Translations under genes and position numbers: made by a program
In this document: piece after piece, positions 3,535 through 63,930 of the stretch
Position numbering within the stretch: position 1 is the stretch's first letter
Layout of the letters: every line of letters starts with the position of its first letter
From: a virus
Lineage: Duplodnaviria > Caudoviricetes
Strand: one strand, 5' to 3'
IMG/VR virus record: IMGVR_UViG_3300033067_001009
Location: 1-64,000 of that record
DNA: 64,000 nucleotides
The notes under the pieces: generated by a model
What the model saw: only the letters and a program-made list of their open reading frames with translations
Database searches by the model: none
What the model was told of the DNA's origin: nothing

Positions 3535-3940
3535 CCTAACATCCGAATGTAACTAGATACAAAACACAGTATTAAGATATACGCAAGGCAAAAGAATAAC
3601 GGAATGTTTGCTAAGCCTAACAGACGCAATAACTTAGCTCATCGAGTTTCTCTCAGAGATTTTCCATTATTTGCCCGACCCACAAAGTGTACAGTGCTTT
3701 GAGTGTCCACACTCGAAAGGTAGCTAGAATGAAATAAATGTATATGTATCAATAGTTTACCGAATTTAGGGTGTGGGTGGGAGTCAAACAAGGCCGAAGG
3801 GTTGTCTCTAACCGGACGATCAGAGATATACTCTCACTCTCAAATGCCTCTGATTCCTGCAAAAGTCCATATTTCTCACACAAAATTAAGTATTTTTTTT
3901 CTCTGATCCAATGTTTTATTTACTTATCATCATAAGTAAG

Positions 3941-3969
3941 TTGACACTGATAAGCGATCTGTGCATAAT
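3941..3969 (+). promoter_or_regulatory. sigma70-type promoter for the rightward arm
   Basis: TTGACA-N17-CATAAT. Confidence 0.8.
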
Positions 3970-4016
3970 GTTGTTTGTTGGCGTATCCGGACAGGAGAAG
4001 ATGGACACGCCGGAGA

Positions 4017-4092
4017 GGGGAGTAGCTTTGCTGGGTGATGGACACCAGTCTCGTGGAAAGCGAGCAGACAGGTTCGAGTCCTGCGCTTCCCT
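4017..4092 (+). ncRNA. tRNA-like cloverleaf (non-canonical; degenerate tRNA or structured leader)
   Basis: Acceptor-like stem GGGGAGT/GCTTCCC, T-arm CAGG-TTCGAGT-CCTG, hairpin CTCG-TGGAAAG-CGAG; lacks U8, U33, a canonical D-arm and CCA. Confidence 0.45.
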
Positions 4093-4104
4093 CTTTTCAA
4101 TACT

Positions 4105-4407
4105 ATGAAAAAAGAAATAACGAAGTACTATTGTCTGTGCGACCGGTGTCAGTGGACTTGGACGACCCGAGGCGACACGCTTCCGGCTGTCTGCCCGAAC
4201 TGCAAGTCGAACAAGTGGGACTCCGGACAGAAAGAGGCTCCGAGTGTCGCCACTGGAGACGTGATCCCCACACTTACATCGACTCCGTCATACACTCCGA
4301 AAGGTGTCGAGTACGAGCCGAAGCCGAAGAACCCGTTCAAGACCAGTCCATATGTGTTGGAGGCTACCGAGGAGCTGACGTATACCGATGATGTGGAGGG
4401 CGCATAA
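4105..4407 (+). CDS. small Zn-ribbon protein
   Basis: CDRC...CPNC; first gene after the 3941 promoter. Confidence 0.7.
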   Translation: MKKEITKYYCLCDRCQWTWTTRGDTLPAVCPNCKSNKWDSGQKEAPSVATGDVIPTLTSTPSYTPKGVEYEPKPKNPFKTSPYVLEATEELTYTDDVEGA

Positions 4408-4409
4408 AT

Positions 4410-6309: not shown

Positions 6310-7191
6310 ATGGAAGATACGATGTCGAAACAGCGGCGAGCCTATTTAGCTCGCCCGAAATGCTGGAAATGCGCGGCCAACGGCAGAAATGTACTGGCGA
6401 CGACCTCCAGTGCGAAGCGGGGAGACCCGATGTGCTGGCGCTGCGACCCGCAATATGATTCCAGCGGTCACAAATCACGTAAACAGGTCAAAAAACCACG
6501 CCCCAAGACCGTCAAAACCGGTAAAAGGTCGGAATATATGCCCGACGAGCTGGTCGATGCGTACGAATTGGTCATTACAGACAAGGAGTACACCTCTTTG
6601 CACGAGGATATTGCCACCGACGAGGCCAGAATCCGCGCCGAACTGCTGAAAATCAAGGAAAGTCCCAAATCGAGCACCCCGTTCATCAAAAAACTGGCCG
6701 AACAGCTCGGTGCCGGTAAGAAATTGATCCGTCAGGGACGCAAAAGCCCGATGACCCTGCTCGATGAAATCTCGGCCACGATCCACGGAGCGGAGGCAGG
6801 GGTCAATGTCTGGGAAAACTACGACCGCATCGTCGAGCATAAGCGTAAACTGGTCGAGTCGGAGACACGGAGGCTCGTGTCTCTCGGCTGGTCGCCCGAA
6901 ATGCTGGAGTTGCTCATCAAGGACATCGCCGGAATCTTGGAGCGGCTCGCCGCCGACAATACTCTGAGTGCGGCAGCGTTCGTCGACCGGCTCGGCAAGA
7001 GCAAACTATTCTCCGGAGCAGTCCTGCGGCTGGCTCCGGCAGAGGAAACTTCATTAGCCGATCCGGCTGCCCAGCTGACGGCTCTGGAGGTCACCCGCAG
7101 GGAAATCAACGTCACCGACCGAGGTGCCGTAGTCACGAGTGTCGACACTCAGGAGGTCGACCAGTTACTAACACTACTAGAGGAGAGTTAA
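6310..7191 (+). CDS. putative terminase small subunit
   Basis: N-terminal Cys pairs, then a KTGKRSEYMP...SLHEDIA..EARI pattern reminiscent of TerS-like proteins; upstream of TerL. Confidence 0.5.
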   Translation: MEDTMSKQRRAYLARPKCWKCAANGRNVLATTSSAKRGDPMCWRCDPQYDSSGHKSRKQVKKPRPKTVKTGKRSEYMPDELVDAYELVITDKEYTSLHEDIATDEARIRAELLKIKESPKSSTPFIKKLAEQLGAGKKLIRQGRKSPMTLLDEISATIHGAEAGVNVWENYDRIVEHKRKLVESETRRLVSLGWSPEMLELLIKDIAGILERLAADNTLSAAAFVDRLGKSKLFSGAVLRLAPAEETSLADPAAQLTALEVTRREINVTDRGAVVTSVDTQEVDQLLTLLEES

Positions 7192-7195
7192 TTTA

Positions 7196-7800: not shown

Positions 7801-7801
7801 T

Positions 7802-7830
7802 TTGCAAAAGAAAAGCGACTGTGTTATAAC
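7802..7830 (+). promoter_or_regulatory. sigma70-type promoter upstream of terL
   Basis: TTGCAA-N17-TATAAC with extended -10 TGn. Confidence 0.75.
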
Positions 7831-7951
7831 ATAGAACAGGCAGCGATTCTCTCCGATCATCCCCTGAAAGGAACCGTCCGAATCTGTTGTCTCATAGTTT
7901 AGATACTCATCGAGGGTCAACATCTGAATCACCGGATGTTGACCTTTTTCA

Positions 7952-9952: not shown

Positions 9953-9956
9953 AACT

Positions 9957-10668: not shown

Positions 10669-13195
10669 CCCCGCCGCTATGCCGTTGCAGCAGCGAGCCA
10701 AGGATCGCTTTATAGACCAGATCGAACGCCGTCAGGAACAGGGAAAGACGACGACATTCGAGGCTCTCGCTACCCGCTTGCGGGAGCACTACTCGACACT
10801 CGACAACGCCGCTCGTCGGGCATTCGCCAAGTCGGCGCTCCGAATGTTCGCCAACTACGAGAACAAATGGACGGGGTACGCGAATGTATTGACCGGCCAG
10901 TGGGTCGAGCCGACCGCATCCGGAAACGATGTCAACCTGACGGTGCCACTGCTGACAGCGCACGTTGACACGGCAATCGTCAACTACACGAAGACCAAGC
11001 CGGAGTACAAGGGGATGCCGTTCATCAACACGGAGCTGAACCGCAAGCTGGCGCGAATGTGCGCCGTCATCGCGCATCGGGAACTCAAGCGAATGCTCAC
11101 GTTCTCCGACCTCCAGCGCGAGGCGCAGTATATGGCGCTCGCCACCTTGAGCTACCGGAACATCAAGATGGATTATCGTCCCGACAGCCCGATCATCTTC
11201 AAGGAAGTCGAGCAGACGCAGGATGTCCCGATGATTCAGCTGACGTGCACCAACTGCCAGTACACCGAGAAGATTCCGGCGATGGAGCTTTCGAGTGGCG
11301 ACACTCAAGGGGCAATCAACTGTCCGGAGTGTTTGTCGCCCAAAATACAGGTGATCCCACAGACCGACCAGCAGCAGGTCAAGGTCAAGGTTCCGGTACG
11401 TCTGCCCCGTCCGGTCATCGAGATACCTAATCCGGTCAACGTCCAGCGCGATTTTAATGCGATGACGTTCCGCAAGGGCAAGTTCGTGATCGTCCGCAGA
11501 CGGGTTCCCAAGAAGACTGCCGAGTTCTACTACCAGATAGACTTGACCGGAGCGAACTCCAGCACGGCAGCCGAGTCCATCGCCACCTCTCAGATGGCAC
11601 GGGAACCGATCCGCAACGACAACTCGACCGTCCCGCTGTTCGACATCGGCGGGTACGTGACCGAGCAGAACGAGTTGATCGAAGAGACGCACCTGTGGCT
11701 CGACCCGTCCGAGTACGGGTTGTTCTTTGCCGACAGCCAGATGCTCGGAGCGGTCTACCCGCACGGGTTGTACATACTGATGTGTGGCGATCTCGTGATC
11801 CGCAAGCGATCTGCCCGACTAGACATCGAGTGGGTCGGTCTCCAGCAGGGTATGCGTCCGGCCTCGAACGGAGGTACCGGTATGGTGCATCTGGCCGATA
11901 TGAACGAGGTCATCAATAACTGCCTGTCACTGGATTACGCAGTGCTCAGAACCCACGGGTTCCCGCTCCGCATCCTCCGTGAGCGCTACCTGTCGGCGCT
12001 GCCGCAAGCCTCCCAGACGCTGCTGGCAACCAAGATTCCGGATGACGTTCCGCTCGATGCTGTGATCCATACCGAACAGCCGTCGAACACGTCCGGTATG
12101 GTCGGGATCATCCCCCAGATAATGCAGCAGCATATGAGTTTCATCGCCGGTACGTTCAACCCGATGGATGCCGGAAACGGCGCAGCGAGAGATATGCTTG
12201 GCTCTGCCACTGGAGCAGCAGCACTTGAGGGGATGATGAACTCCCGTCAGGGTTTGAATCTCCAGATGCGTCTCGAAGCGGACATCGACACGATGTACTC
12301 GATCCTGTACTTCTTGCAGCAGGACGACCGCAACCGTGAATTGTTCATCGAGGAGTTCGACGAAGCGACCGTCGATGCGTTCTTCAAGAGTACCGACCTC
12401 AGAAGCTCGTTCTATTTCGAGCCGGTAAGAGGTACTGATGAACCCCAGTCCGAATCGGCCAACGCATTCAAGATGATTACGTTCGCCCAGAACATCGCTC
12501 CGCTGACCGGTCTGCACGAGTACGATAAAGAGACGTTCTACGATCTGGTTGCCAAACTCGGAGACTCGCTCAACATCGATGTCGAAATCGGAGCAGGTCG
12601 CAAAGAGCGCAATCTGGCCGACAACAAGATCACCAGAATCAAGGAACTGTACAAAGAGTACAAGAACGATCCGATGCTTGCACAGGCCACCCCAATCGAC
12701 ATCGGCTGCAATCTGTACCAAGCAGTCACGATGAAAGATGTGATGGTTGTTTCATCGATTGCACAAGCTCTCGCGCAGAAAGAAAAAGTTGCCACGGCAC
12801 CGATCATCAACGAAGTTCAGGCAATGGCCGCTTCGATGGTGCAAGCACCTCCGGTCGAGATTTATCTCTACGACTGGGACGCTCTCGTCGTCAGCTATTC
12901 GGACTGGCTCCAATCCGATGAGGGGCAGAACGCAGCTATACCGGTACAACTCGCTGTCGGTATGCTTTTCGCCTACGCACAGGAGATGAAAGAGCAGAAA
13001 GAGTGGTACGAAAAATTGAAGATGGCCTCGATGATTCCTGCTCCGGAAGACCCTAACGCCCCTGCGGGTCAGGACTCCGGTACGTCATCCGGCAGCACGA
13101 AGAAAGACGGAAAAGCAGCGGGGTCTACCGGTCGCCCACGGCAGCCGTCAGCCAGCCGGTACGCCGAGGGAAAAACTCGGGAAACCGCTAAGTAA
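10646..13195 (+). CDS. putative portal protein with Zn-ribbon insertion
   Basis: 849 aa, between terL and scaffold/capsid; CTNC...CPEC insert; low-complexity C-terminus. Confidence 0.7.
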   Translation: MQPNLPDNPAAMPLQQRAKDRFIDQIERRQEQGKTTTFEALATRLREHYSTLDNAARRAFAKSALRMFANYENKWTGYANVLTGQWVEPTASGNDVNLTVPLLTAHVDTAIVNYTKTKPEYKGMPFINTELNRKLARMCAVIAHRELKRMLTFSDLQREAQYMALATLSYRNIKMDYRPDSPIIFKEVEQTQDVPMIQLTCTNCQYTEKIPAMELSSGDTQGAINCPECLSPKIQVIPQTDQQQVKVKVPVRLPRPVIEIPNPVNVQRDFNAMTFRKGKFVIVRRRVPKKTAEFYYQIDLTGANSSTAAESIATSQMAREPIRNDNSTVPLFDIGGYVTEQNELIEETHLWLDPSEYGLFFADSQMLGAVYPHGLYILMCGDLVIRKRSARLDIEWVGLQQGMRPASNGGTGMVHLADMNEVINNCLSLDYAVLRTHGFPLRILRERYLSALPQASQTLLATKIPDDVPLDAVIHTEQPSNTSGMVGIIPQIMQQHMSFIAGTFNPMDAGNGAARDMLGSATGAAALEGMMNSRQGLNLQMRLEADIDTMYSILYFLQQDDRNRELFIEEFDEATVDAFFKSTDLRSSFYFEPVRGTDEPQSESANAFKMITFAQNIAPLTGLHEYDKETFYDLVAKLGDSLNIDVEIGAGRKERNLADNKITRIKELYKEYKNDPMLAQATPIDIGCNLYQAVTMKDVMVVSSIAQALAQKEKVATAPIINEVQAMAASMVQAPPVEIYLYDWDALVVSYSDWLQSDEGQNAAIPVQLAVGMLFAYAQEMKEQKEWYEKLKMASMIPAPEDPNAPAGQDSGTSSGSTKKDGKAAGSTGRPRQPSASRYAEGKTRETAK

Positions 13196-13320: not shown

Positions 13321-14850
13321 ATGGCAGTAGAGTTAAAACCCAACTCGCAGTACGTATCAGATGCGGCTTTTTTTGCTAATCAAGGTCTCGGCTCGTCGTT
13401 ACCTGTATCAAATCCGACCGAACCAGCCACTTCGCAAGAGCCTGTACAAGATGCACCTGCTAATCAAGGGCAACCAACCGCAGCACAACTACCGTTGAAC
13501 CCAATCGCCGCACCGTTTCCGGCCTCGGAATTGCCGCCGCCTCCGGCAGCAGAACCAACACCGGCACCGGTCGTCGAGGAACCGACCATCGATCCCAACG
13601 ATCTGTTCTCAACGGAATTACCGAATACCGTTCCCGAACCGGCTCAAGACCCCTTGAGTGTCGACACTGGAACAGTTATTCCGGACGTTTCGACCACTGT
13701 TTTCGACGAGTTCAAACCGGCAGCAGACGCTCCGGACTGGCAGCGAGAGCAGTTTGCCAATATCGTCAACGACCCGAATTTCAGCGAGCAGGACAAACGC
13801 GACATCCTCGCGCAGAATCCGCACTCGTGGGTCAAGCAACGTAAATGGCAGCGTGACTCCAGAACCCTCGGCAGATTCAGAGACCCGAACGTCCCGATCA
13901 CGGACATCCTCGGCGCTCTGAGAGAGCAGAACACCACTCGGGCTGAACAGCTTGAGATCGAGAGTGCTGCTTCTCTGCTATCGAACGCCGAGAAAATCGT
14001 ACGTTTTGCGGAGAGCCAGCCGGAAGTATATTCCCAACTGATGCTCGCGTTAATCACGGAAGCTCCGGAACAGATGACGCAGGTACTGGGAAAGCAAGGT
14101 TACCTCGTAACCAAAGCTGAACCGGCGAACGCCGACGACATCTTGGCGAAGCTGATGGAGAATCCGTATTACGCATCGATTCGGGACACCGAGTTCGGTG
14201 ACGAGGTCGTCAACACGATTCGTGATCTGGCGACAAAGGCAGGTTCCACGGAACCGACCGAGCCGACCGAGCCGAATCAACCGGCACCGACCGGCTTCCA
14301 GAACCCTGAGTTCGTCTCACGGGTCACGGAGACCGTCGAAACCACCAAGACGCAGGTGTGGGACAAAGCGTTATCGGATGGACTTGCCCGTGAGGGGATC
14401 AAACCGGCGACCAAGGAAGAGATCGCCGCCAACCCGCTCGCGTACTTCAAGACCATTATGCACAACATCGCTGTTCACGGGTTGGAGGGCGTAGTCCCCA
14501 GCTCGGACAAGCAGATCGACAAATTCGTTGGTGACAATCCGGACTATCTGGAGACCTTACAGGCTCTGGATCGGTATCTCAGCAGCGGAGAGTTGGACAA
14601 GTTCAAGGATGAAGCGAAGACGCTTGCTCCGGTGTACCACCAATTCGGTGCGGCACGAGCAGGAATCCCGTTCATCAAGGGGCTGTACAACCAAGTACAG
14701 AAACTTCTCGGGGAGAAACCGGCTGTGACTCAGCCGCCGCCTCCCGAACCGACCGTACCGCAGACCCCGACCGGCAACCCGCCGATTACACCTCGTGACA
14801 ACGGGTGGGCTTCTGACAGGTTGTTTTTCGAGAAGCAGAACCGACAATAA
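13321..14850 (+). CDS. putative capsid scaffolding protein
   Basis: Pro/Glu-rich termini with a helical core; directly upstream of the capsid gene. Confidence 0.55.
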   Translation: MAVELKPNSQYVSDAAFFANQGLGSSLPVSNPTEPATSQEPVQDAPANQGQPTAAQLPLNPIAAPFPASELPPPPAAEPTPAPVVEEPTIDPNDLFSTELPNTVPEPAQDPLSVDTGTVIPDVSTTVFDEFKPAADAPDWQREQFANIVNDPNFSEQDKRDILAQNPHSWVKQRKWQRDSRTLGRFRDPNVPITDILGALREQNTTRAEQLEIESAASLLSNAEKIVRFAESQPEVYSQLMLALITEAPEQMTQVLGKQGYLVTKAEPANADDILAKLMENPYYASIRDTEFGDEVVNTIRDLATKAGSTEPTEPTEPNQPAPTGFQNPEFVSRVTETVETTKTQVWDKALSDGLAREGIKPATKEEIAANPLAYFKTIMHNIAVHGLEGVVPSSDKQIDKFVGDNPDYLETLQALDRYLSSGELDKFKDEAKTLAPVYHQFGAARAGIPFIKGLYNQVQKLLGEKPAVTQPPPPEPTVPQTPTGNPPITPRDNGWASDRLFFEKQNRQ

Positions 14851-17249: not shown

Positions 17250-17706
17250 CAAAGCAAAAGACGAAGATAAGAAAGCGGAAGACACCACGAGTGTCGACAC
17301 TCAAGAGGTATCGGCAGCCGGAGAACCGGCAGCGGATTTCAAACCGATTCCGGAACACGCAGTTGCCGCCGCGCCGGTAGACGTTCCGGTAGGTGAACCG
17401 GTCGCCAACGCGCCGGAAGAAGAGGGGGTCAATCTGGTTAGCGATCTGACGGCGCTCACCACGGCCGCAGCCGGTAAGGTCGACAGACTGATGGAGACAG
17501 GCTTGAAGTTCCAGCAGTTCGTCCGTGAAAACGAAACCAAATTTCGCCGGATCGAGAGCATCCAGCAGGGCTATAACACGCTTAAAGAGGTATCGGATGA
17601 TCTGTCGAAAATTATCGACCTCGCCAAAATCGATGCCCTGACGAAGCAGCTGGAGGACGCTCTCGCCAGTATCCAGCGCAAGGAGGCAACCGGACAAGAT
17701 GCCTAA
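17242..17706 (+). CDS. hypothetical acidic/coiled-coil protein
   Basis: GAGGAG RBS; contains one palindrome copy (SVDT). Confidence 0.7.
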   Translation: MSNKAKDEDKKAEDTTSVDTQEVSAAGEPAADFKPIPEHAVAAAPVDVPVGEPVANAPEEEGVNLVSDLTALTTAAAGKVDRLMETGLKFQQFVRENETKFRRIESIQQGYNTLKEVSDDLSKIIDLAKIDALTKQLEDALASIQRKEATGQDA

Positions 17707-18877
17707 GATGAACAAGGTCGTGTCGGGTGCTCTTGACAGCATCCGGCGCGTCATCCAACACCACGAGCAGTGCAAGTTCGTCATTCATTTCTGGATGCCG
17801 TTCTTCAACATTGCGATGGGGGGTTTCAGATTCCCACAGATTCCGGACGATTACATACCGTCCGGAGTTTTGATTCCGCTCGTCGACATTACACAGCGGC
17901 ACATCGATTCGTTCGCCCACCCGACCACGGGCAAGTTGACGGTCTTCGAGTCGCCGTTCACCCAAACCATCGTCCAAAGCTATCTCGACCTCCAGCGTCG
18001 GTACGGCAGGTACGGACTAACGATGGTTGAGCCGCTCTCGTGCACGCTGGGTGAGGCTGAGGAGACCATCGAAGCGTTCGACTTGATGTACTCGGAGTTC
18101 AACGGGTATCTACAAGACCTTGCGGATTTCTTCCGCATCCAGTCGCCGGTCGCTCACCAGCTCGACAATCCGATCAAGCGCTGTAAGGTCACGTACGACC
18201 AAGCTCTCGACAACCTGCTGGCAAGCGGACGTATCTCCGAGGTTATGTACCAGCGGCTAATGGCTGCTGTCCACGACTTCCAGCGTTCGGTCGAGTTCGC
18301 TCACCGGACAGCCTTGTCTCCTCAGGACGGCATCCTGCCGAACTCCATCAAGTACGTCAACGCCGGTACCAAGAAAGACGGACTGGATGAGGCCGATCTC
18401 TGGATCGCTCGCCAGTTCCCCGACTTCAAGGTCAGCTCGCGTTTGCAGGGCAAGGAAGATACCAACAGCATCGACAAGCTCGTCGAGGTGTTGGCCGACC
18501 GTCTCGTCGGAACCCCGAAAGCCGCAGTCGTAAATCCGTCCGCAGCACCGACCGATCTCTGGGCGCTTCTGACGAACGCGACACCGGAAGAGAAAGCAGC
18601 GCTGCGAGCGATCCTCGGCATCGACACGCAGCCGTTGGGTACTCCCGCAGCTGTTCCGGCGACTTCGAGTGTCGACACTCAAGAGCCGGAGGCAGTCGAT
18701 TACGAGGACGCTTACGACCCACCGGCATTCACGCAGCAGTGCAGCGGTACCACCCGCAACGACACCCGCTGCAAGCTGGATGCTCGGCAGGGTCATATGA
18801 CTTGCACGGCACACGCCGATCAAGAGGAGTCGATCCTCGCAGCGATGCGGGGTTTAGCGGAGCAAGCAAGTGCATAA
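17699..18877 (+). CDS. hypothetical protein with C-terminal Cys/His motif
   Basis: CSGTTRNDTRC...CTAH near the C-terminus. Confidence 0.7.
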   Translation: MPKMNKVVSGALDSIRRVIQHHEQCKFVIHFWMPFFNIAMGGFRFPQIPDDYIPSGVLIPLVDITQRHIDSFAHPTTGKLTVFESPFTQTIVQSYLDLQRRYGRYGLTMVEPLSCTLGEAEETIEAFDLMYSEFNGYLQDLADFFRIQSPVAHQLDNPIKRCKVTYDQALDNLLASGRISEVMYQRLMAAVHDFQRSVEFAHRTALSPQDGILPNSIKYVNAGTKKDGLDEADLWIARQFPDFKVSSRLQGKEDTNSIDKLVEVLADRLVGTPKAAVVNPSAAPTDLWALLTNATPEEKAALRAILGIDTQPLGTPAAVPATSSVDTQEPEAVDYEDAYDPPAFTQQCSGTTRNDTRCKLDARQGHMTCTAHADQEESILAAMRGLAEQASA

Positions 18878-22916: not shown

Positions 22917-22919
22917 TTC

Positions 22920-22933
22920 GAGTGTCGACACTC
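22920..22933. repeat. intergenic copy of the 14-bp palindrome
   Basis: Between TAG (22914-22916) and ATG 22942. Confidence 0.95.
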
Positions 22934-28481: not shown

Positions 28482-28495
28482 GAGTGTCGACACTC
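28482..28495. repeat. intergenic copy of the 14-bp palindrome
   Basis: 4 nt after a stop codon, immediately before GAGGAGG. Confidence 0.95.
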
Positions 28496-43400: not shown

Positions 43401-46073
43401 CTGATCTCCGAGTTCGACACTCAGTACCCGCAGTTCGAGATCGCCGCCCAGCAGGTGTACGACTGGAACCGTGGCGTTCTTGAGTATGTCCGTCAAATGG
43501 TTCCCGACCTCGACGAATCGATCCAGCGGGTCTTGGACAGTTCTCAGAACTACGTTCCTTTGATGCGTGTGTTTGATGACGTGGAAGAGGATGTGTTGGC
43601 GGGTAAGTACAGCGGGTTCGGGAGTAATTCTCTTAAGACTTTGAAAGGGTCTGACAGGAGGGTGAAGTCGATCTTTCCGCAGCTCTTGGCAAATGCCGAG
43701 CGGCTCATTCAGATGGCGCACAAGCGCAAGGTGCTGGACACCATCGTCAGTCTGGGCGAGATCGATGGCGTTGGTCAGCTGATCGAAGAGGTGCCGCAGT
43801 CCCAGCGTCCGAACAACGTGACCATCGAGCAGATCGCCAGAGGTCTGACGGATGCCGGTGTCGATCTGGACGGCATCGATCTGGATCAAGCGATCACGTA
43901 TTTCACACCAGCCCAGCGTCCGCAAGGTAAAGACCCGATTGTACCGCTCGTCAGGGACGGCGCGATTCGCTGGTACTACGTGAATGCCGAGCTGTACAAC
44001 ACACTTTCCGGCCTGGACATACACAAACTCCATCCGATACTGGATTGGACGTTCGGCGTGTCGACACGTGCGTTCCGTCTAGGAACCACCGGACTCAAAG
44101 CATCGTTCTCTTTGTTCACTAATCCGATGCGCGACATCCCGACTCTGTATATGCAGACCCAGACTAATAATCCGGCACGGCTGGTGATGGAGTATTTCAG
44201 GGCTATTGGTTCGGCGCTCAACCCTAAACGGTTGGTAGGAGAGAATACCACTGCACTTGATTTAGTGCACCGTCTCGGTGTCTCTATGTCACAGCCTCTC
44301 GGAACTGATGAGGCAATCACGACCAAGGCATCCAAGGAACTATTCAAGTCCCCGTTCAAACGGGTCGTCACCCAGCCTATCACGATGCTGCGCGAACTGT
44401 TGAGCACACCGGAAATGATCCCACGTGAAGCAGAGGTGCGAGCTATCGCCAAAGAGATAGGTTACACTATCGGAACCCCGATGGATTTCAATACGATGGT
44501 ACAGCTGAGTCTCGCCGGTCGTCGGGCGACTGTCGACTTTGCGGCGATGGGTACGGTGGGCAGAGTAATGAACCAGATGATTCCGTTTTTCAATGCGAAT
44601 ATTCAGGGATCACGGTCGTTCATCCGTGCTTACCAAGCACGTCCCGTGCGTACTACTTTAACCGGATTGGCGGTGATGACGTTGCCGACTTTATGGCTCT
44701 GGTGGAAGTACAAGGACGAGGATTGGTGGCGCAAGATGCCGACCCGCGAGAAGTTCCAGTACTGGCACTTTCGTGTCGGTGACGAGGTGATCCAGATTCC
44801 CAGAACTCAGGATTGGGGAGGTGTGTTCGCGTCTGTCCCCGAAGCTCTGCTCGACGGGTGGTATCAACGTGACCCGAAAGGTGTGGAGAAATCAATGGGT
44901 TACCTCTTTGACAACGTCACTCCTGACATTCTCCCGACGATTGCCAGAGCCGCTGTCGAGCAGCTCGGCAACCGCATCGATTACTTCGACCGGCCTATCG
45001 TACCTACCGGCGATCTTAATAAACCGGCAGCGGAGCAGTACAGCCCGTACACCTCGGTGTTCGCTAAGTGGTTGGGTGCTCATCTTCCGAACTGGAAAGT
45101 CCTGAACATCCCGATCAACAGCCCTCGCCGGATCGATGCGCTCATCCGGACGATGGCTGGCGGGGTCGGTAGCGATCTGGCGCATCTTTTGGACATTAGT
45201 AAAAAGGATTTGACGTTAAGTGATCTGCCGGTTATCGGCAGAGCATTCAGGCAGGGTGGCGTGGAGGGTGTCGGCAGCACCGATGTCGAGAACTTCTACG
45301 ATGCTTTGGATGAAGCTAAGACCAGAGCGGCGAGCGAGGCGAATCCCGAGTCCCCGCAGGAGCAGCAGCAGCGTCAGCTTCTCGAAGACACCAGCAAGAC
45401 CATCGCTGTCGTCAGGAAGCTGGCTGTCGAAGCTCCGACCGTGAGAGAGCGGGAGCGGTACTCGCGTCTCGTCAACGCGCTGGCCGATTTGGCAGTCAAC
45501 CGCAAGCTCGACTATACGACCGAGCAGAACCGGAAGCTGCTGCCGGAGGACATCGACCTGCTCAAGCAGACCGAATCCAAGATCGCAGAAGTGACTCAGG
45601 TGACCGGCGCGTTCGATTCAGGAAAGGTCGAGGACATCAAGGAGCTGCCGAAGAGAGATCAGCGGGAGGTTTTGAAAGAGGGGCTGCTGACCGATCAGCA
45701 GCAGAAGTTCTCGTCTCTGACGAATGTGGAGAAGCTGTTCAAGTTTCGAGTGTCGACACTCGAAGACAAGGCACGGCAGTCGGCATTCATCACGAAAGCG
45801 ATCAACGATCTGAAAGCGAAGCGGGACAAGCAGCCGAACGAACAAGCATTGATTGGTGAATTGGAACGTGCTCAGTCGAACTTCGATGCGGAATTATCGA
45901 AGCAGCCGGAAGATGAGCGACGGAGGTTGGAACAGATCGACGACGAGACCGAGAAAGCTGTTTCTGTGGGAGGCAGAACTCGTCGCAGGAGTAGGCCAGC
46001 AAGAGAGGGTCGCCCCAATAAGAACGACCCTCTGAACAAACTGTTCAAGTTCTACGAGCAGAAACAGAACTAG
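34473..46073 (+). CDS. large polyvalent protein (SLT + GHKL ATPase + zincin-like HExxH x2 + LPD38)
   Basis: SLT: MAKESSG...AKGYMQV...ALAAYNAG (~34670-34950). GHKL: KEAFQNSFDA...DNGIGM...GGFGMAK (~40100-40540). LHEAVH ~41695, AHEVGH ~42630. LPD38-like IPFFNANIQG...IPRTQDWG (~44530-45200). Confidence 0.85.
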   Translation: MFDEEAVNAAANALLKMSPQTEATFSAPDVVPEPVPEPTPVPQPEPMPPIPQNNDDEEDVQTRTKRIAKREGVDPKLILAMMAKESSGKKKARSWANAKGYMQVTPDKIKTYYKENPNADPYDAEANITAGVRYMKRLLKRYGGDVRKALAAYNAGEKQALDRPDWEKYAETWSNDKEVQAGRKPRGKSDPTNTLNYVNHIYSNYKSGKTFTDVGYQIDDEAVNAAANALKNMPPPKVDEDAINAAAAALSKSQPPATTITPTEGTTPTPETYPRTDVQGFDKQGNPATVAKFGDTPIPPVTPTSVDTQTDDALPEVAQKTEGITNPPEFEFWDKTTGQQFWVDPDRKGLKDSQIRLLPVPNVVKTPEDKAKQDNTPRIIEKDPDGNYYFVQTGQVATKQPTVVQKVRKVPTKVPVSQPSGDGQIRSPLEELKTTGQTKLGSATVKMVGQPDGDTIKVEDEDGETYKIDAKTGDVEDESMAEVADTFSFNRVPLNLRPTTSLEDAKTQATYQIASQMKSKYGIAVQDFAAWQANKGFIDFDTKGEANPDSFYQPYTTDESTPSTELGKSLLTTNTYSITRREMAELQQFSARQSKAREDAVLQMIASGQFPTPETLNRLEVDLAKIANDRRDDYMMAREKQAVSLEDFDRFKRESYMRGMDDYEASITAGTKLGWYTDKFAQTELENWRKEKLNAQSRVDAAYGGDQNPDNAVRIQLEKRAAVGVLQQRAQQFGTITNLVNIRLKMQQEEAAAKQAIEDRMNQLWGGGTLPSLAYFGEATKNVVFNFGKGLYSTVISDMVKGAVTITKPIADGASMLLGVEGTRNLNVSDNIVYRAMQTVDDFVDKAKPSTNDDFRQTDSPAGFFVSDIPQGVASSLGFLLPSVSKYPRVAIALYSTVGMVSNGYEEAKAAGADEIDAQRYGIVSGGLLGWTEIFGSSEALIRLNRGSGGALWRQFLKKAFAEAAKEVPEEIFQEGVQTIGSNALARLTYDPNRELDRGLGRAMLAAGFSAGLVSTGVTLLNTVRYSRQIKTALAADRANGIETLRNFGNGNVYLYGKKITVTDEIQPLIDKHTELHDRITTAYKLMDRLKTEAQTVPLEKRAEFYKLIQDIAKNTAKDVVEQRNTAQAILDRTNPTKPDIVDTMTPEQVAEVREEPVPPPVAAVEEEQKKYIVVEPINKPEEKGQGTFVDNAADIEQSGVPEPIFKGALPTGAAPVDTNPVQETAPEPASVDTQGYTYDPNSPTPWRDFVESKGHKFRDIKATSPEYPALRDEFNKLKEAHTDIAPATEPVQEDPKPMTPRPTQTQTEYIQKYVGLHGDLFADAAQAAADEHYAVVKEHVKNGGTITKKVYDSMQPRHQRHFDQHYNSRGDKITANASISSTTATKPYHVSVGDVIQVDLPHGTHTMKVTDVDGRMVHGLKSDADGNTVKERISVELGEHKVTNLSAPETKLGGVDNASIVDDGKLPNSQSVKAGDSITYGNQKATVVKVTNKTVVVQHDGDTKTRTIKKDTFDALPVVNHTGQAEADQLTHGREFGTSTATPEEAADRQWEQVQEEEAKSQPVQPRLDGVETKESPENMEPHANGATPLETWAKDNPDAVRDIDTQYPAPTEDEMTIVKLFDDPESVENWEKSPAALLKMLQKHDLLDGLTMSEVSDDLKEDLKEAEDAEERQQMKLDYITEQLGYESNPFGDKYEARWQALYDRYTEIYNRNQQQGTATEVAAEEAPVSEEPAAKFYEGDEVTLKDGTDAVVSSVLPDGKLEVEMPDGTLETVPISSVKPQVEENTAPTSVSPEASIYDHDELEARMDQLYKDTYLDTQGLETMYRLLMSGQHDKLNELLTLIETGIAQTSYMASEKQLKNIKGKVTANIRALLRLIGEQMYKGDIVEINVKEAFQNSFDAVKAAVEKGLITNPQIKIALDQSNRTLTVTDNGIGMNKKIILESFLVIAGSSKENTDPSGGFGMAKAPLLFGNDWVDVTTIRDGVKYTFRITPEHADGNNVDIKQEATTEPSGTTLIMRIPEKVQSTSGDEKDVWLPYDLSRIQTLSKPLLGDVEVLAGDSWGGETTWKPITTMGKHFDYSQIPKFTSVNFSWGSADIYIGTEKKDKYDVKHNILSNGIYQFDIMFGKYDSRFPHDVMVDVHPKAKAGDAAYPFDIRREGFNHLIEKDVAALKAYIETIGLIEQVEDEAETFKSMKQLPRVKVNGLAMTTEQKEAVKDTVKKENAPVEKPQVKYDNLQVKDGVISTTDKTTGKTVILIDTNEGKDTDEGDGEGERKKAFDKSFDPDKKLKTAADMLHDIGIDPSQPVFHNNTNIDWMSFHPDAPEFFSQMGSLMSDLKEEIAKLGDYVSKAVKPDFYSGISIDKSYAGVNIKIPFSGMFINPFYVAAGVGTDFNGIVKSLYHTMLHEAVHFYVRAHNDSFASGLWTIDSNMATTGAHAKMTVKLEMVLKKHFEMYKEMKKEYDKFSTKNIRGSLEGERSESDESFEPELSDEQIEQRSERFWGKLWNRYANATSEPVVSVSNAEEGRKDSERLPSDKKQNQIVPDKQSSVDISKLSVGDQVTFRSGAKGFVVSVEDGKVTAVLQDGTFKELKAIKPKIEKNPSTDQNKTTLSVDTASAPAEPTDPVTSPYESLEDEEVHNMLINDINLPLQQQVQSGYGGTKVSSTDVINSFRKVLEQIGNTVIRMGRTGNIQAEGIYKPRVEVIRLGRANKITAAAHEVGHAIQKAVFGAVSGRSLGGLSPIVRRQLIDLGRELYGDRVPKGGYAAEGFAEFIRMALTGDTTTVNVSAVEDWYNNEFLPNNPELETVLWDARSTVDDYINQGAKSRSDANMPVKKSVKERLAGLRNFFRKIPTWMNEDLTPLLRLTRRVESITGLKLSFGEDPYSVGSALRGLAPSRVAYMAYENMVDANGNIVGRPLIDATQLVRDSERDFTHYLWARRTIELLDRTKTLDDGTVVPDPKASGMSREDAEFLISEFDTQYPQFEIAAQQVYDWNRGVLEYVRQMVPDLDESIQRVLDSSQNYVPLMRVFDDVEEDVLAGKYSGFGSNSLKTLKGSDRRVKSIFPQLLANAERLIQMAHKRKVLDTIVSLGEIDGVGQLIEEVPQSQRPNNVTIEQIARGLTDAGVDLDGIDLDQAITYFTPAQRPQGKDPIVPLVRDGAIRWYYVNAELYNTLSGLDIHKLHPILDWTFGVSTRAFRLGTTGLKASFSLFTNPMRDIPTLYMQTQTNNPARLVMEYFRAIGSALNPKRLVGENTTALDLVHRLGVSMSQPLGTDEAITTKASKELFKSPFKRVVTQPITMLRELLSTPEMIPREAEVRAIAKEIGYTIGTPMDFNTMVQLSLAGRRATVDFAAMGTVGRVMNQMIPFFNANIQGSRSFIRAYQARPVRTTLTGLAVMTLPTLWLWWKYKDEDWWRKMPTREKFQYWHFRVGDEVIQIPRTQDWGGVFASVPEALLDGWYQRDPKGVEKSMGYLFDNVTPDILPTIARAAVEQLGNRIDYFDRPIVPTGDLNKPAAEQYSPYTSVFAKWLGAHLPNWKVLNIPINSPRRIDALIRTMAGGVGSDLAHLLDISKKDLTLSDLPVIGRAFRQGGVEGVGSTDVENFYDALDEAKTRAASEANPESPQEQQQRQLLEDTSKTIAVVRKLAVEAPTVRERERYSRLVNALADLAVNRKLDYTTEQNRKLLPEDIDLLKQTESKIAEVTQVTGAFDSGKVEDIKELPKRDQREVLKEGLLTDQQQKFSSLTNVEKLFKFRVSTLEDKARQSAFITKAINDLKAKRDKQPNEQALIGELERAQSNFDAELSKQPEDERRRLEQIDDETEKAVSVGGRTRRRSRPAREGRPNKNDPLNKLFKFYEQKQN

Positions 46074-48620: not shown

Positions 48621-48905
48621 TCATCTGTTCAGGTTGCCTATGTACAAGTTCAACAAACTTTCCAGCTGCAACCTACCAAGGATGATAGCATCACAATATT
48701 TTTTATTGCAAGTGACGCGACCATCTTTTATCACCCAGTACTCATTGTGTACAAGTCTCTCGAAAATCAAATGAGTGTCGACACTCGTGATACTGTACAC
48801 GATAAGGTCTGGTTTTGCCTCGCTGTAAAGGCACTCGAACCCCAATTCCTTGAAGTCCGAATGTCTCAACGTCGGAGTTACGTTTTCGTACGATCCGTAG
48901 TTCAT
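48621..48905 (-). CDS. hypothetical protein
   Basis: Coupled ORF; contains a palindrome copy. Confidence 0.55.
   Translation of the reverse strand: MNYGSYENVTPTLRHSDFKELGFECLYSEAKPDLIVYSITSVDTHLIFERLVHNEYWVIKDGRVTCNKKYCDAIILGRLQLESLLNLYIGNLNR
48682..48711 (-). promoter_or_regulatory. internal promoter upstream of the Toprim gene
   Basis: TTGCAA-N18-TATCAT with extended -10 TGc. Confidence 0.45.
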
Positions 48906-51467: not shown

Positions 51468-51720
51468 AATTTTATCTCCAGTGTCGACACTCGTGACTTG
51501 GGGAAAACCTACGGAAAGGGGTTCTTGGGGTGGACAAGAGTGATACCTGCTTGGAAGCGTAAACTTCGCTGCATCTCTTAACCCAAGAAAAAAATCTTTC
51601 GATTCTCATAAGTTCGCAAGTGTGACGTTCTTGTTATTTTTAAGGGTAAGATTCATTATACTTGATACTTCTCACCCTTGTTACTTCTAATGTCGGTCTC
51701 CTAAAGCAGCGGATGCCTAG

Positions 51721-53884: not shown

Positions 53885-54326
53885 TTTTAATCTCCTCCTC
53901 GATTTGTTCGACTGCCACATCGAGCGGCAGTGCTATGGTTCCGCACACGATTCCGAGCGCATTACTCAGCAACGTGTCCAGCTCGAATACAGCACCGGCC
54001 TTTTCCCACATCTCGATCCGCGCCGGACGCATATCGCTGAACCGATTTTTGTTTACCCGTTCTTGGTAGCGCCGGATGTAGGTCGATGCTTTCTTAAGAT
54101 CGTCGATCTTGTTGTCGTGCTTCCGACCGGCGCGGCAGATGTACTTTGCCGCATTACCAAGCCGGAAGTCCAAACGAAAGAACTCGATCACCTCGTCGAC
54201 GAACCACCCGTGGTAGTAGTTCCGACCGCTATGAGTGTCGACACTCGAAGCAGCCGCAGTACCTGCTGCGTTCTTCCAGCAGTAACCCTCGTCCTTTCCG
54301 CATTCTTCACATATTAACTTTCCCAT
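53853..54326 (-). CDS. DUF3310-like protein
   Basis: LDFRLGNAAKYICRAGRK...DDLKKA. Confidence 0.75.
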   Translation of the reverse strand: MGKLICEECGKDEGYCWKNAAGTAAASSVDTHSGRNYYHGWFVDEVIEFFRLDFRLGNAAKYICRAGRKHDNKIDDLKKASTYIRRYQERVNKNRFSDMRPARIEMWEKAGAVFELDTLLSNALGIVCGTIALPLDVAVEQIEEEIKNEERNQHTGA

Positions 54327-54328
54327 CT

Positions 54329-57249: not shown

Positions 57250-57560
57250 ATCATCCCCTTTATTATTTCCCAGCAGTCGTCCAGATCGTATAGGTAATAA
57301 CTGCCACGTTGACCCCTACCTACTCGGGTTACCTTGTCTCCGAAAACTCCGGAGATCGTCCAAGCCTTGAGTGTCGACACTGGAATCTCGGCCACAGCAG
57401 CCATCGTATCAGTGTCCACCTTAATCATCGTTATTGGAATATAGCGCTCATAAGTACGGTACTTTGCCGATATAAGCTGCTCTACCGGTATTTCACAATT
57501 ACGTTTCATCCTCCTCCACCCAGATACTGACGGCGACTCTGGGATTAGCCTTGTCGTCAT
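57246..57560 (-). CDS. hypothetical protein
   Basis: Coupled ORF; contains a palindrome copy (VSTL). Confidence 0.5.
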   Translation of the reverse strand: MTTRLIPESPSVSGWRRMKRNCEIPVEQLISAKYRTYERYIPITMIKVDTDTMAAVAEIPVSTLKAWTISGVFGDKVTRVGRGQRGSYYLYDLDDCWEIIKGMI

Positions 57561-58057: not shown

Positions 58058-58345
58058 TTATCCTCTTAACTTTACCAGCAACGCTTTCGCGTCACCGAAT
58101 GCTTTTAATACCGCAGTGTCCAGCGCCGACTCGACACTGTCGAATGCGGGTACTACCCGTACAGTGGAGCACCCGATAGCGTCTACCAGCGCCTTGAGTG
58201 TCGACACTAGAGCGCTGTAATTGTTGATTGCCTCTTCAAGAAAGAGAGCCTCGCCTTTCGGCAGCTCCGAGCAATCGACGATGATCTTGTTTGTGGCATC
58301 CTCGATTGTTTCGCAGCTACCGTAGTATTTAACCGGAAGTATCAT
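58058..58345 (-). CDS. hypothetical protein
   Basis: Coupled ORF. Confidence 0.55.
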   Translation of the reverse strand: MILPVKYYGSCETIEDATNKIIVDCSELPKGEALFLEEAINNYSALVSTLKALVDAIGCSTVRVVPAFDSVESALDTAVLKAFGDAKALLVKLRG

Positions 58346-61907: not shown

Positions 61908-62006
61908 AATCCTCCTGCCTTGAGTGTCGACACTGAAAGAGGGTGGGGCATCACCCCCACCCTCACTTTGGAGACAAGCGTATGTCAAACGCTCAAGGGA
62001 AACTTT

Positions 62007-62357: not shown

Positions 62358-62464
62358 TATTTTTTCCTCCTGAAATTCAAGATGGCAGTTATCACGAAGA
62401 TAACTGCCACGATAACGAATGCGTACACCTCGAACAGATGGTGCCGCAGCCACTGTGAAAACAT
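62357..62464 (-). CDS. very small membrane protein
   Basis: One TM segment, basic tail, TAATG coupling. Confidence 0.45.
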   Translation of the reverse strand: MFSQWLRHHLFEVYAFVIVAVIFVITAILNFRRKK

Positions 62465-62474
62465 TTGAACCCCC

Positions 62475-63443
62475 TTATAATTTGACGGGACGAGCCTTGA
62501 CTTCGACCCAGTTCGAGATCGAGCTGGTGATCTCGGACAACCCACGTTCGATGGCGACCTTGGTTTCGAGGTTGTTGCGGATCGCGTCGGGCGACACGCC
62601 GGAGAGAAGTTGCTGCGCCTTGGTCACCGCTTCCCGCATCTCGGTGTCGTTCGTCAGGTCTTTCGCCGGAAACGTGGCGAGGAAGTCACGGACGGTTTCG
62701 ACGTAGCCGGACTTGAACGTCTTGCGTTCTCCACGTCCGATCCCTCTGATCTTGTCGAGCATCGTCTCGACGATCTCGACGAACCCGACCCGCAGAGCGC
62801 CTCTGATCTGTGCCATATCTTCCTGTACACGTGCTCTGTCCTCTTCGACCAGCTTGGCGTGGAGCTTCGGGTCAATGTCCTTGAGTTTGTCCGGCACGGA
62901 GACGGATAGCAGCCGGTATGAGATCGAGAACTTGGAGCGGATCGCTTCCTTGCTCGGGTAGTCGGACTGCTTGAACACGGACGGGTTCCGCATCTCGACC
63001 TCACGCACCGCACGATCCCAGTTGTCGATCAAGTCGTTGACCAGTCGACCCCGCTCTTTCTCGTACAGTTCGATCATCTTGAGAGCGTGACCGACCAGCA
63101 TATTCGGCAGCAGCACCATCCCGTTACCGGCGAATGCGCTGCGGAGGGAGAGAGCGTTGAGTCGTCGCTTCATATGAGAGTCGTGCTTCGAGATCGCTTC
63201 GACGTACGTCTTGTCGATCAGTCTGGTGGTAGTCGAGATCAGATTGGTGTCGATACCCTCGTCGTTGATAAGCTCGTCGGAGTTGACGGTCTTCTTGAAC
63301 TCCGTCCCGTTGATGGTAAATTTTAACAGCATCGTGTTGTTCGGGATGACCTCACGATCTGCGGTGTTGATAACCTCGGTCGGTGTTTCTGCGAATGATT
63401 GGAACGAATCGAAAAATAAGTTGTCATTAGCTTCGGTAGCCAT
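62475..63443 (-). CDS. DUF3150-like protein
   Basis: NGMVLLP...YPSKEAIRSKFSISY pattern; all-helical. Confidence 0.6.
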   Translation of the reverse strand: MATEANDNLFFDSFQSFAETPTEVINTADREVIPNNTMLLKFTINGTEFKKTVNSDELINDEGIDTNLISTTTRLIDKTYVEAISKHDSHMKRRLNALSLRSAFAGNGMVLLPNMLVGHALKMIELYEKERGRLVNDLIDNWDRAVREVEMRNPSVFKQSDYPSKEAIRSKFSISYRLLSVSVPDKLKDIDPKLHAKLVEEDRARVQEDMAQIRGALRVGFVEIVETMLDKIRGIGRGERKTFKSGYVETVRDFLATFPAKDLTNDTEMREAVTKAQQLLSGVSPDAIRNNLETKVAIERGLSEITSSISNWVEVKARPVKL

Positions 63444-63460
63444 AATTGTAATCTCCTAGT

Positions 63461-63727
63461 TTAGCACTCTTGAAATACTGCCGCTAACGCCGCAGCGATC
63501 TCGTCGGCAGCCTTGACCACGTCCGTATCTCCGAATATCTCGGCATACCCTCCGACAGAGTATCCGAGGAGCTGGTAGAATTGCTCACGGTCTTCCTGCG
63601 GGAACGGTATGGCCTCAATCATATTTAGGTCAACACGGCTGTGGGTAGCCAATAAGAACCGGACAATCTTGTTGACCTTGAACCGAGCGGTTCCGTGCTC
63701 GTCCAAGTACACATCCTGCATAGGCAT
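63461..63727 (-). CDS. conserved phage hypothetical protein
   Basis: RFKVNKIVRFLL...LNMI...EDREQFYQLLGYS. Confidence 0.65.
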   Translation of the reverse strand: MPMQDVYLDEHGTARFKVNKIVRFLLATHSRVDLNMIEAIPFPQEDREQFYQLLGYSVGGYAEIFGDTDVVKAADEIAAALAAVFQEC

Positions 63728-63729
63728 AG

Positions 63730-63930
63730 TTATTCGCCCTCCTCTTGGCCTTGAGTGTCGCCACTCAAAGCAAGCCTGTTAAAGAATCTCTTACGGCGCT
63801 CACGGTCTCCGTCGTTGACCTCCGACCAGCCGCATCTTACCTTGGAGATCGGCTCCTCGCCATCTTCCAAGAACAGTTTATTGCGCCACCAGATCAACCC
63901 CAGCTCCCGTTCGAGCGACGGTAGGTTCAT
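63730..63930 (-). CDS. small hypothetical protein
   Basis: Coupled ORF. Confidence 0.5.
   Translation of the reverse strand: MNLPSLERELGLIWWRNKLFLEDGEEPISKVRCGWSEVNDGDRERRKRFFNRLALSGDTQGQEEGE

Follow-up and report, generated by a model that had tools for sequence, protein, structure and literature searches.

Genome context and the iterated palindrome

The stretch of DNA analyzed here, hereafter the window, comprises bases 1-64000 of a 75,904-bp contig of an uncultured freshwater phage (IMG/VR record IMGVR_UViG_3300033067_001009), and our subject is a 14-bp palindrome, GAGTGTCGACACTC, copies of which are dispersed between and within its genes. From 3.7 to 46 kb the genes lie on the plus strand and encode the terminase TerL, structural proteins, and a polyvalent protein of 3866 amino acids (aa), which carries SLT, GHKL and LPD38 domains and in which the D-x-D-x-D motif of RNA polymerases was not found. 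From 76 back to 46 kb of the contig they lie on the minus strand and encode a Ycf46-like AAA protein, DUF2997 and DUF3150 proteins, PolA, a ParB-like protein, RusA, Erf, a thymidylate synthase with an HNH insert, DnaB and Mini-A. Scans of the open reading frames (ORFs) against Pfam, PHROGs and NCBIfam recognized no immunity repressor, integrase or ParA, and most ORFs remained without a match.

The whole contig contains 15 exact copies of GAGTGTCGACACTC; the number rises to 25 when one mismatch is allowed and to 27 when two are. The window holds 11 exact copies, 10 with one mismatch and two with two mismatches (Table 1), and the sites beyond it are at 68493, 72767, 74738 and 75874. An earlier reading of the window, made from its sequence only, had located the 11 perfect copies correctly but reported nine with one mismatch, as the copy at 11293 (GAGTGGCGACACTC) had been overlooked. 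In dinucleotide shuffles the 14-mer is found 0.00 times exactly and 0.45 times at up to two mismatches. The codon-preserving control proposed at that stage has now been carried out: synonymous-codon shuffles yield on average 2.1, 4.9 and 7.8 copies at zero, up to one and up to two mismatches, with maxima of 4, 9 and 13, all far below the numbers observed. Intergenic DNA was left unshuffled in this control, and the intergenic sites account for most of the copies that remain in the shuffles. Contigs from four public runs belonging to two studies (one riverine, one unlabelled) match the stretch without a single differing letter, and over positions 17000-36999 the run contigs are identical to the window, with no strain variation; the lattice of motifs is therefore not an artefact of a single assembly.

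Table 1. Copies of the palindrome and other features of the window (contig coordinates where indicated)
Feature	Coordinates	Location and context	Counterpart in relatives
Site, 1 mismatch (GAGTGTCCACACTC)	3701..3714	divergent intergenic region between leftward and rightward gene blocks	
Site, 2 mismatches	4242..4255	within 118-aa ORF	
Site, exact	7137..7150	54 nt before stop of 293-aa gene	orthologous site in L313 and L314
Site, 1 mismatch (T6>G)	11293..11306	within 849-aa gene	same variant orthologous in L314, absent in L313
Site, 1 mismatch (outer base)	13656..13669	within 525-aa gene	orthologous in L313, absent in L314
Site, exact	17289..17302	40 nt past stop of gene 16416-17249; near 5' end of 156-aa ORF	
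Site, exact	18667..18680	in 392-aa gene	orthologous in L313 and L314
Site, exact	22920..22933	intergenic, 8 nt upstream of ATG of 566-aa ORF	
Site, 2 mismatches	24530..24543	36 codons before stop of 582-aa gene	
Site, 1 mismatch	26133..26146	near 5' end of 811-aa gene	
Site, exact	28482..28495	intergenic; followed by AAGAGGAGG and GTG (16 nt to start)	
Site, exact	33152..33165	in 512-aa gene	
Site, exact, SVDT	35384..35397	3866-aa polyvalent protein gene	none orthologous in L263, but one 162 bp off
Site, exact, SVDT	38162..38175	3866-aa gene	stretch without aligned L263 counterpart
Site, 1 mismatch, SVDT	42314..42327	3866-aa gene	absent at orthologous L263 place
Site, exact, VSTL (other frame)	45748..45761	3866-aa gene	orthologous site kept in L263
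Site, exact	48773..48786	162 nt upstream of Mini-A gene; on minus strand followed by ATTTGATTTT (terminator-like)	
Site, 1 mismatch	51479..51492	intergenic; on minus strand 11 nt before ATG of 60-aa ORF	
Site, exact	54233..54246	386-nt gap between genes 54307-54615 and 52259-53920	
Site, 1 mismatch	57369..57382	small minus-strand ORF	
Site, 1 mismatch	58196..58209	95-aa minus-strand ORF	
Site, 1 mismatch (AAGGCAGGAGG)	61922..61935	intergenic, DUF8033-like gene to 93-aa gene; 14 nt to ATG	site in same gene interval in L308 and L311
Site, 1 mismatch (T6>G along transcription)	63753..63766	3' end of 125-aa gene, 25 nt before next ATG	orthologous in L308
Low-GC block	1-3650	minus-strand genes	
Mini-ORF after site 3701	3715-3740		
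TerL gene	7952-9952	plus strand	
3866-aa polyvalent protein gene	34473-46073	plus strand	
Mini-A gene	47544-48611	minus strand	
Candidate replication origin	51650-51800		
Iteron-like repeats	51695-51774	beside winged-helix gene	
99-aa winged-helix gene	51748-52047		homologue in L308
Thymidylate synthase-like/HNH gene	52259-53920	minus strand	
ParB-like gene	59024-59800		homologue in L312
DUF8033 gene	62007-62357		
Ycf46-like/DUF2997/DUF3150 module	62475-63443; contig 64104-67223		L308 and L311
Mini-ORF after site 75874	contig 75845-75873		

The palindrome had been described as recurring about every 3 kb, with the largest gap (7137 to 13656) spanning 6.5 kb. The first part of this description holds, as the gaps between contig copies at up to one mismatch average 3007 bp (standard deviation 1102, range 827-4740). 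The large gap vanishes because the copy at 11293 is now counted, leaving a real maximum of 4740 bp. With a coefficient of variation (CV) of 0.37 the spacing is far more even than chance: 20,000 random placements never reached so low a CV or so small a maximum gap (P<5e-5). The copies thus cover the genome evenly, as had been suggested, and no clusters of the palindrome occur anywhere in the contig. This evenness suggests that whatever reads the sites needs coverage of the whole chromosome and not the control of particular genes.

Anatomy of the site

Aligned along the direction of transcription, the site extends over about 20 bp, YTY-[G/C]AGTGTCGACACT[C/G]-RAR, and in this contig G..C brackets the invariant core AGTGTCGACACT. 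The dyad symmetry is exact over 12-14 bp, including the centre, while the flanks are weakly symmetric, and their asymmetry relative to transcription is not significant in an information-content test (P=0.43). There are no isolated half-sites, since each of the 25 occurrences of GAGTGTC and of the 27 of its complement belongs to a full site. Mismatches are confined to the outermost pair, position 2 or the central TCGA. At the outermost pair eight contig sites are non-complementary and none is compensated, each half varying independently, and hybrid G..G and C..C sites are present in all genomes that carry the lattice. Such independent variation of the outer halves is expected of a dimer with two half-site contacts and not of a required stem pair.

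The sites occupy both intergenic and coding DNA. At least 12 of them are deep inside ORFs, including the four in the 3866-aa gene, where the proposed use of two reading frames is confirmed within one gene. The coding assignments made earlier stand only in part: in the minus-strand half some are doubtful, the site at 54233 lying in an intergenic gap and that at 48773 in a 94-aa ORF of uncertain status.

Conservation, turnover and replacement in related phages

Graded relatives were found by protein searches with Mini-A, PolA and TerL, and their loci were fetched as contigs, which for several of them are partial. The core AGTGTCGACACT is present, invariant and at the same density, in L263 (64% in Mini-A), in L308 and L313, which belong to one 77.8-kb contig (60% in PolA, 75% in TerL; 14 sites in 44 kb), in L311 (63% in PolA) and in L314 (70% in TerL), whereas the neighbouring DNA is only about 65-70% identical. 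The combination of two reading frames, intergenic copies and an invariant core indicates that selection acts on the DNA and not on the encoded peptide, as the sequence-only reading had argued. The pooled gaps of the relatives (n=21) average 3211 bp with a CV of 0.37 (P<5e-5 against exponential gaps).

Positions of the phage were mapped onto those of the relatives via protein alignments: seven of 11 keep a site (those at 7137, 11293 with the same T>G in L314, 13656, 18667, 45748 and 63753 among them) and four do not, and the relatives also carry sites where the phage has none. Related phages thus keep the density of sites while some positions move, a point that the earlier reading had proposed to check. 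We do not claim compensatory turnover: three of the five relative-only sites have an own site within 160-610 bp, which we estimate to be not beyond chance.

In the four lattice-bearing relatives the outer pair is mostly C..G, as opposed to G..C in the phage, and hybrids occur. In a more distant lineage, represented by L316 (1-21950) and L397 (1-20222) from a 77-kb Logan contig of run SRR29078257 (54% in TerL), the word is replaced by a different, 13-bp palindrome, TAGCGA(C/G)TCGCTA, with about 11 sites in 31 kb. This palindrome shares the TTY..RAA flanks and recurs once per 1-5 kb, more densely (about 1-2 kb apart) in the early-gene block. The remaining relatives have no lattice: k-mer and palindrome-enrichment scans revealed no iterated palindrome in L312 (55% in TerL), L315 (58%), L020 (37%; a complete 72.9-kb record) or L021 (31%). 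A regularly spaced CGACG-N-CGTCG in the GC-rich L265 was discarded as a low-information coding word with many near neighbours.

The lattice is thus private to a small clade, within which its specificity switches symmetrically between lineages. Because relatives at 58% or less in TerL (L312, L315, L020) have none, we consider the lattice an accessory trait and not part of core replication or packaging; the existence of lattice-free kin with shared machinery argues against roles in priming by a DnaB/PolA replisome or in packaging by TerL. The symmetric switch of the outer pair, together with the different palindrome of the sister lineage, fits a protein and a site that co-evolve.

Exact scans of IMG/VR with GAGTGTCGACACTC and CAGTGTCGACACTG returned single chance matches only, megablast against the phage record collection found no match to the phage, and no close relative of it was found in IMG/VR. 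Among the matches listed from 185,579 species genomes, those to GAGTGTCGACACTC were only single and scattered over unrelated taxa, which, together with the absence of the cyanobacterial palindrome HIP1 from the contig, makes a host-wide word of the HIP1 kind, one of the analogues named in the earlier reading, less likely. A scan of metagenomes gave single matches and an unrelated 0.5-kb repeat family with the 14-mer in its inverted ends. This repeat (contigs L022, L046, L049, L050, L071, L088, L115 and L139) is 88-93% identical across contigs from several samples, is bounded by inverted GGTACCC-GAGTGTCGACACTC-GGGTAC ends and has no similarity to the phage; it looks like an element of the miniature inverted-repeat transposable element (MITE) type that shares the 14-mer by happenstance. 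Short iterated words are generally common in phage contigs; for instance, the unrelated phage contigs L007, L017 and L018 (IMG/VR, two samples) contain an asymmetric 11-mer, GTGTATCTTTA, four to six times per 12-14 kb.

Interpretation of the lattice

We favour, tentatively and with a confidence just short of even, the interpretation that the copies form a lineage-specific lattice of duplex binding sites for a dimeric, sequence-specific DNA-binding protein, which is most likely encoded by the phage itself. Of the ideas put forward in the sequence-only reading, a sequence-specific binder is the one that the sequence data support best, and the overall pattern fits a fast-evolving accessory pair of such a protein and its sites. 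A dimer would dock at each site of about 20 bp, and selection would keep at least one site every 5 kb or so, using intergenic spots where these are free, often just upstream of a ribosome-binding site, and tolerant codons in long genes. The purpose, which we infer to require coverage of the whole chromosome, might be global transcriptional control or silencing, as with KorB and its OB operators or with stoperators, coating or compaction of the DNA, or its protection. The reader may alternatively be an enzyme for which the palindromes are targets, such as Mini-A or a nickase, or a factor of the host.

A rather different explanation, which we regard as fairly unlikely, is that the site acts as a strand-specific hairpin with a stem of 5-8 bp and a UCGA loop. 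In RNA, it could serve as a stabilizer of mRNA 5' ends, a processing site, a translational operator adjoining the Shine-Dalgarno sequence or a signal for reloading of an antiterminator. On the single strands of a replication fork, the hairpin might provide a priming or primosome-assembly signal for the lagging strand, which would explain a spacing of the size of Okazaki fragments. Several observations that point in this direction at the same time weigh against duplex binding by a dimer. The core deviations fall 8 to 1 into the transcription-wise 5' half, which a symmetric binder would not predict, although this is suggestive only; most of them would lie in the loop or in the 5' arm of the hairpin, and of the three in the arm two are A>G, so that a G-U pair is retained. 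Within a site, the two flanks complement each other better than would be expected from the consensus (P of about 0.001-0.01 in a within-genome shuffle of partners), and a few intergenic sites are perfect palindromes of 24-30 bp with differing extensions, which covary, as at 74738 (GGTAC/GTACC) and 75874 (AAGGCTT/AAGCCTT), and at position 1232 of L313 (CACGCT/AGCGTG, then TTTTATT). These features hint that base pairing matters at some sites. In addition, at six of the 27 sites (22920, 28482, 51479, 61922, 63753 and 72767) a distance of 8-25 nt separates the end of the site from the start codon of an ORF of at least 60 aa, against a chance expectation of about 0.6 by our own arithmetic; several of them abut an AAGGAGG-like sequence, likewise in L308 and L311, and their position could mean a role in expression instead of coverage. 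Finally, GTGTC, one of the recognition words of the T7 primase, is present on both strands.

On the other hand, the stem positions never covary but are simply invariant, and the eight changes of the outer pair are uncompensated. A strand-specific element finds no support in the flanks, whose asymmetry is not significant, nor in the central base of the sister motif, the orientation of which is with transcription at only seven of nine sites and against it at two (not significant). A role in RNA leaves unexplained the four sites, with their turnover, inside a single 11.6-kb ORF, and relatives with the same DnaB and PolA lack the lattice, so that core replication does not need it. The start-associated sequences (SAS) of Cluster K mycobacteriophages are always directly upstream of start codons and include the ribosome-binding site, whereas of the present sites only the six named above end within 8-25 nt of a start codon. 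In consensus scans of the 46-64 kb region for promoters and terminators, promoter-like sites occurred at chance level and not at the palindromes, and one site (48773) was terminator-like.

Candidate DNA-binding proteins

Against a dimeric binder stands the fact that none was found: the ParB-like protein, Mini-A, the winged-helix initiator and the DUF8033 protein each lack support. The ParB-like protein matches phrog_12305, "ParB-like partition protein" (E=2.5e-20), and the parS, NBS and OB sites of ParB, Noc and KorB are likewise fully conserved palindromes of 13-16 bp. It is therefore conceivable, if scarcely probable, that the palindromes are loading sites for a clamp of this type, from which the protein would slide and coat the chromosome. 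However, a Pfam search at E up to 0.01 gave no ParB_N match for the protein, and it matches nothing among the PDB sequences. It carries a DGQHT-type motif, which we take to indicate a DndB/nuclease-like branch, and lacks the GERRxR box, presumably the CTP-binding box of the CTP clamp. A homologue (39% identical) occurs in the lattice-free L312, while the gene is absent from the syntenic slot after PolA in L308 and L311 and from the 44 kb of L308/L313. The parS/ParB idea of the earlier reading thus fails on co-occurrence with the lattice (in relatives that are partly covered), and the protein is not supported as the binder, on this ground and for want of a ParB-family CTPase signature.

Mini-A, labelled "DNA topoisomerase" in PHROGs, is a stand-alone protein similar to Topo VI-A and Spo11. 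Were it the reader, the palindromes would be sites at which its dimer acts on a symmetric DNA gate centred on CG, either managing topology or cutting, which we think improbable. A palindrome with CG at its centre would suit the symmetric cut that type IIB enzymes make in both strands, with a stagger of 2 nt, and even spacing is in keeping with a role in DNA topology. The protein belongs to the Mini-A family: R39, Y42, Y43, E123, D179-H-D181 and S243-WELDAL are invariant, and these include the RQLYY motif with the catalytic tyrosine, the TOPRIM glutamate with DHD, and SWELDAL. A sequence search against the PDB found nothing, but its AlphaFold model (pLDDT 80) best matches Topo VI-A (1d3y_A, probability 1.0) and a Corynebacterium glutamicum nuclease (8b7f_A) according to Foldseek. 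As defined in the literature, the family comprises proteins of about 300 aa with a 5Y-CAP domain bearing RxxY/F-Y, a TOPRIM domain with E and DxD, and an xWELDAL box, without a B subunit, and no Bergerat-fold partner is known for it (PMC7671362). A GHKL (Bergerat) ATPase domain, at residues 1892-1994 or so of the giant injected protein, whose gene is convergent with that of Mini-A and lies two genes from it, could be a candidate for the missing partner. As to the lattice, Mini-A is missing from the syntenic slot of the lattice-bearing L308 (between DnaB and the 341-aa gene), and no Mini-A of about 60% identity from the 77.8-kb contig of L308 was among the best matches listed. Moreover, the family is widespread (about 8000 homologues), and a dispersed 11-mer with a maximum count of at least five was found in six of 65 viral Mini-A loci compared to two of 27 control viral loci, i.e. 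iterated words are no commoner near Mini-A than elsewhere. On these grounds it is not supported as the binder.

The 99-aa winged-helix protein contains the only recognizable sequence-specific DNA-binding domain that we found. It matches DnaD-like helicase loader and replication initiation proteins of PHROGs (E down to 1e-11), with a weak match to O-like proteins, and corresponds by homology to the N-terminal domain with which phage initiators bind the origin; L308 has a homologue, and in L312 none was detected. Dyad iterons of 19 bp are the targets of lambda O dimers, and the palindromes could by comparison be dispersed boxes at which this initiator loads the helicase or is titrated, a possibility to which we assign little weight. 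The gene has its own, different iteron-like repeats beside it (two direct copies and one inverted copy of CACCACAGGTCTCC), the palindrome forms no clusters, and lattice-free relatives share DnaB and PolA. The TCACCACAGGTCTCC-like iterons overlap the 3' end of the initiator gene and are followed by AT-rich DNA with a promoter-like site, GTAACA-18-TATAAT; judging from its sequence, this region is likely the replication origin of the phage. Different iterons next to AT-rich DNA are the layout expected of a real origin, and the winged-helix protein is not supported as the reader of the palindrome. The DUF8033 protein is encoded beside a site in all three lattice-bearing genomes that cover the region, but its low-confidence model (pLDDT 67) matched no fold at E below 1 and gave no indication of a DNA-binding fold, and the Atlas search returned only DUF8033 clusters.

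Least probable of all, in our view, the word has no function of its own and was spread by a mutational or repair drive, by a mobile element, or by copying from the host. The same 14-mer at the ends of the unrelated metagenome repeat shows that it can occur in mobile DNA, and correction of quasi-palindromes may lengthen palindromes, in keeping with those of 24-30 bp. Yet drive would not give even spacing, and the sites lie in frame, in two frames, and in essential genes. Copies share only about 20 bp, with no element body, and similarity stops about 3 bp past the core; since half of the copies also fall in ORFs, they do not resemble repetitive extragenic palindromic (REP) or MITE-type elements. 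The matches listed from the genome collection are single and scattered, and the lattice persists in L308/L313 despite a different avoidance of palindromes there (CATG 57-66 times, compared to 0 in the phage).

Comparison with known dispersed sites

The closest published precedent is found in Cluster O mycobacteriophages (Corndog and its relatives), whose genomes of about 70 kb contain more than 30 near-invariant copies of a 17-bp dyad, TGTTCGG-N3-CCGAACA, between genes, near gene starts and, for about one third, within genes, without convincing orientation with respect to transcription (PMC4351075). The authors considered them sites for a dimeric DNA-binding protein, did not assign a function, and judged a gene with a parB-like domain to be unrelated (PMC4351075). 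The lattice shares the near-invariant dyad word far above chance, its presence between and within ORFs and its conservation in relatives. The Cluster O sites, however, crowd toward one end of the genome, and the 3 bp at their centre are free, while here 12-14 bp are fixed and the CV of spacing is 0.37. About half of the present sites are coding, four of them in one giant ORF, their turnover between relatives has been measured, and there is no relationship of sequence or of the phages themselves.

In Cluster A phages such as L5 and Bxb1, about 20-35 copies of a 13-bp stoperator lie in short intergenic gaps and in genes, and are bound by a phage protein that silences the genome and whose specificity shifts together with the sites between related phages (PMC9283540, PMC6550527). 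Unlike our palindrome, a perfect dyad with orientation that is weak at best and flanks without significant asymmetry, stoperators are asymmetric, are recognized by a repressor monomer and point along the direction of transcription.

As in the KorB-OB, ParB-parS and Noc-NBS systems, a conserved palindrome of 13-16 bp is dispersed over a replicon. KorB in particular is a dimeric protein that acts at a distance from 12 OB operators (TTTAGCSGCTAAA) on the plasmid RK2 of about 60 kb, and the sister motif TAGCGA-S-TCGCTA has the OB-like 13-bp layout with a central S. In contrast to KorB-OB and ParB-parS, the phage has no canonical ParB/KorB CTPase, more copies per kb and a more regular spacing.

Haemophilus uptake signal sequences, Neisseria DNA uptake sequences and Chi are short words that occur at regular density in coding and non-coding DNA, where they use tolerant codons. 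They have in common with the lattice only the signature that every segment needs one, being host-wide, asymmetric and far more numerous. HIP1 (GCGATCGC), of which the contig contains 0 copies, is an iterated palindrome found in and between genes like the lattice, but it is an 8-mer that occurs host-wide at about one per kb or denser. Nothing points to the nickase of the T5/phiKMV type that had also been considered: nick sites of the T5, phiKMV and tf kind follow an asymmetric consensus and are nicked on one strand of virion DNA, whereas the consensus here is a perfect dyad.

Implications

Dispersed dyad repeats in phages have been on record since the Cluster O genomes, without an assigned function. 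What is new here is the evenness of their distribution in the phage and its relatives, the graded set of relatives, and the failing of the obvious candidates for a reader. It is tempting to go further and to regard the lattice as one instance of a widespread, hitherto undescribed way in which tailed phages organize or protect their whole chromosome, although we consider this possible and rather doubtful. In such a scheme a private palindrome, kept by stabilizing selection at one copy per 2-5 kb, would be the nucleation or loading site of a fast-evolving protein family not recognized as DNA-binding, and site and protein would switch together, from GAGTGTCGACACTC to CAGTGTCGACACTG and, in the sister lineage, to TAGCGASTCGCTA. 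With complete genomes, the graded set (the same site, a flipped outer pair, a different palindrome, no lattice) should pinpoint the gene that co-varies with the sites. Identifying the binder would establish the way in which a phage marks its entire DNA, which bears on self/non-self discrimination, silencing, compaction and the evasion of defence.

Other features of the genome

The left end of the window is a block of low GC content (43% compared to about 54%) with minus-strand genes, two of which have homologues in L313 (61% and 30%), and it contains zero copies of the palindrome. If the genome were circular or terminally redundant, this block would join the minus-strand genes of the right end, and the gap from 75874 to 3701 would amount to 3.7 kb. 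The contig is probably near complete, as relatives have contigs of 72-78 kb, and the CheckV completeness of 62% is probably an underestimate. Both terminal sites, 3701 and 75874, are followed after 12-14 nt by mini-ORFs of two and five codons (ATG AAA TAA and ATG TTC ATC AGA GCA TAA) and not by a gene.

An HNH endonuclease domain (residues 236-414 or so) interrupts the thymidylate synthase-like gene or is fused to it, and no homologue of this gene was found in those regions of the relatives that were examined. The module of a Ycf46-like AAA ATPase with DUF2997 and DUF3150 is conserved in L308 and L311, and DUF1257 was called in the L308 copy; the linkage of Ycf46, DUF2997 and DUF3150 is otherwise cyanobacterial, which gives a weak hint at the host.

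The genome exhibits extreme avoidance of other palindromes. In 75.9 kb there is not one CATG, and of the 64 six-base palindromes 25 are missing, including AAGCTT, CTCGAG, CTGCAG, GAATTC and GGATCC. Abundant words are TCGA (719 copies), GTCGAC (80, 58 of them not part of the motif), TCCGGA (72) and TGTACA (40). CATG is found in 0-1 copies in L263, L311 and L314, and in 57-66 copies in L308/L313. The avoidance as a whole suggests hosts with many restriction systems, and hosts or strains that differ within the clade.

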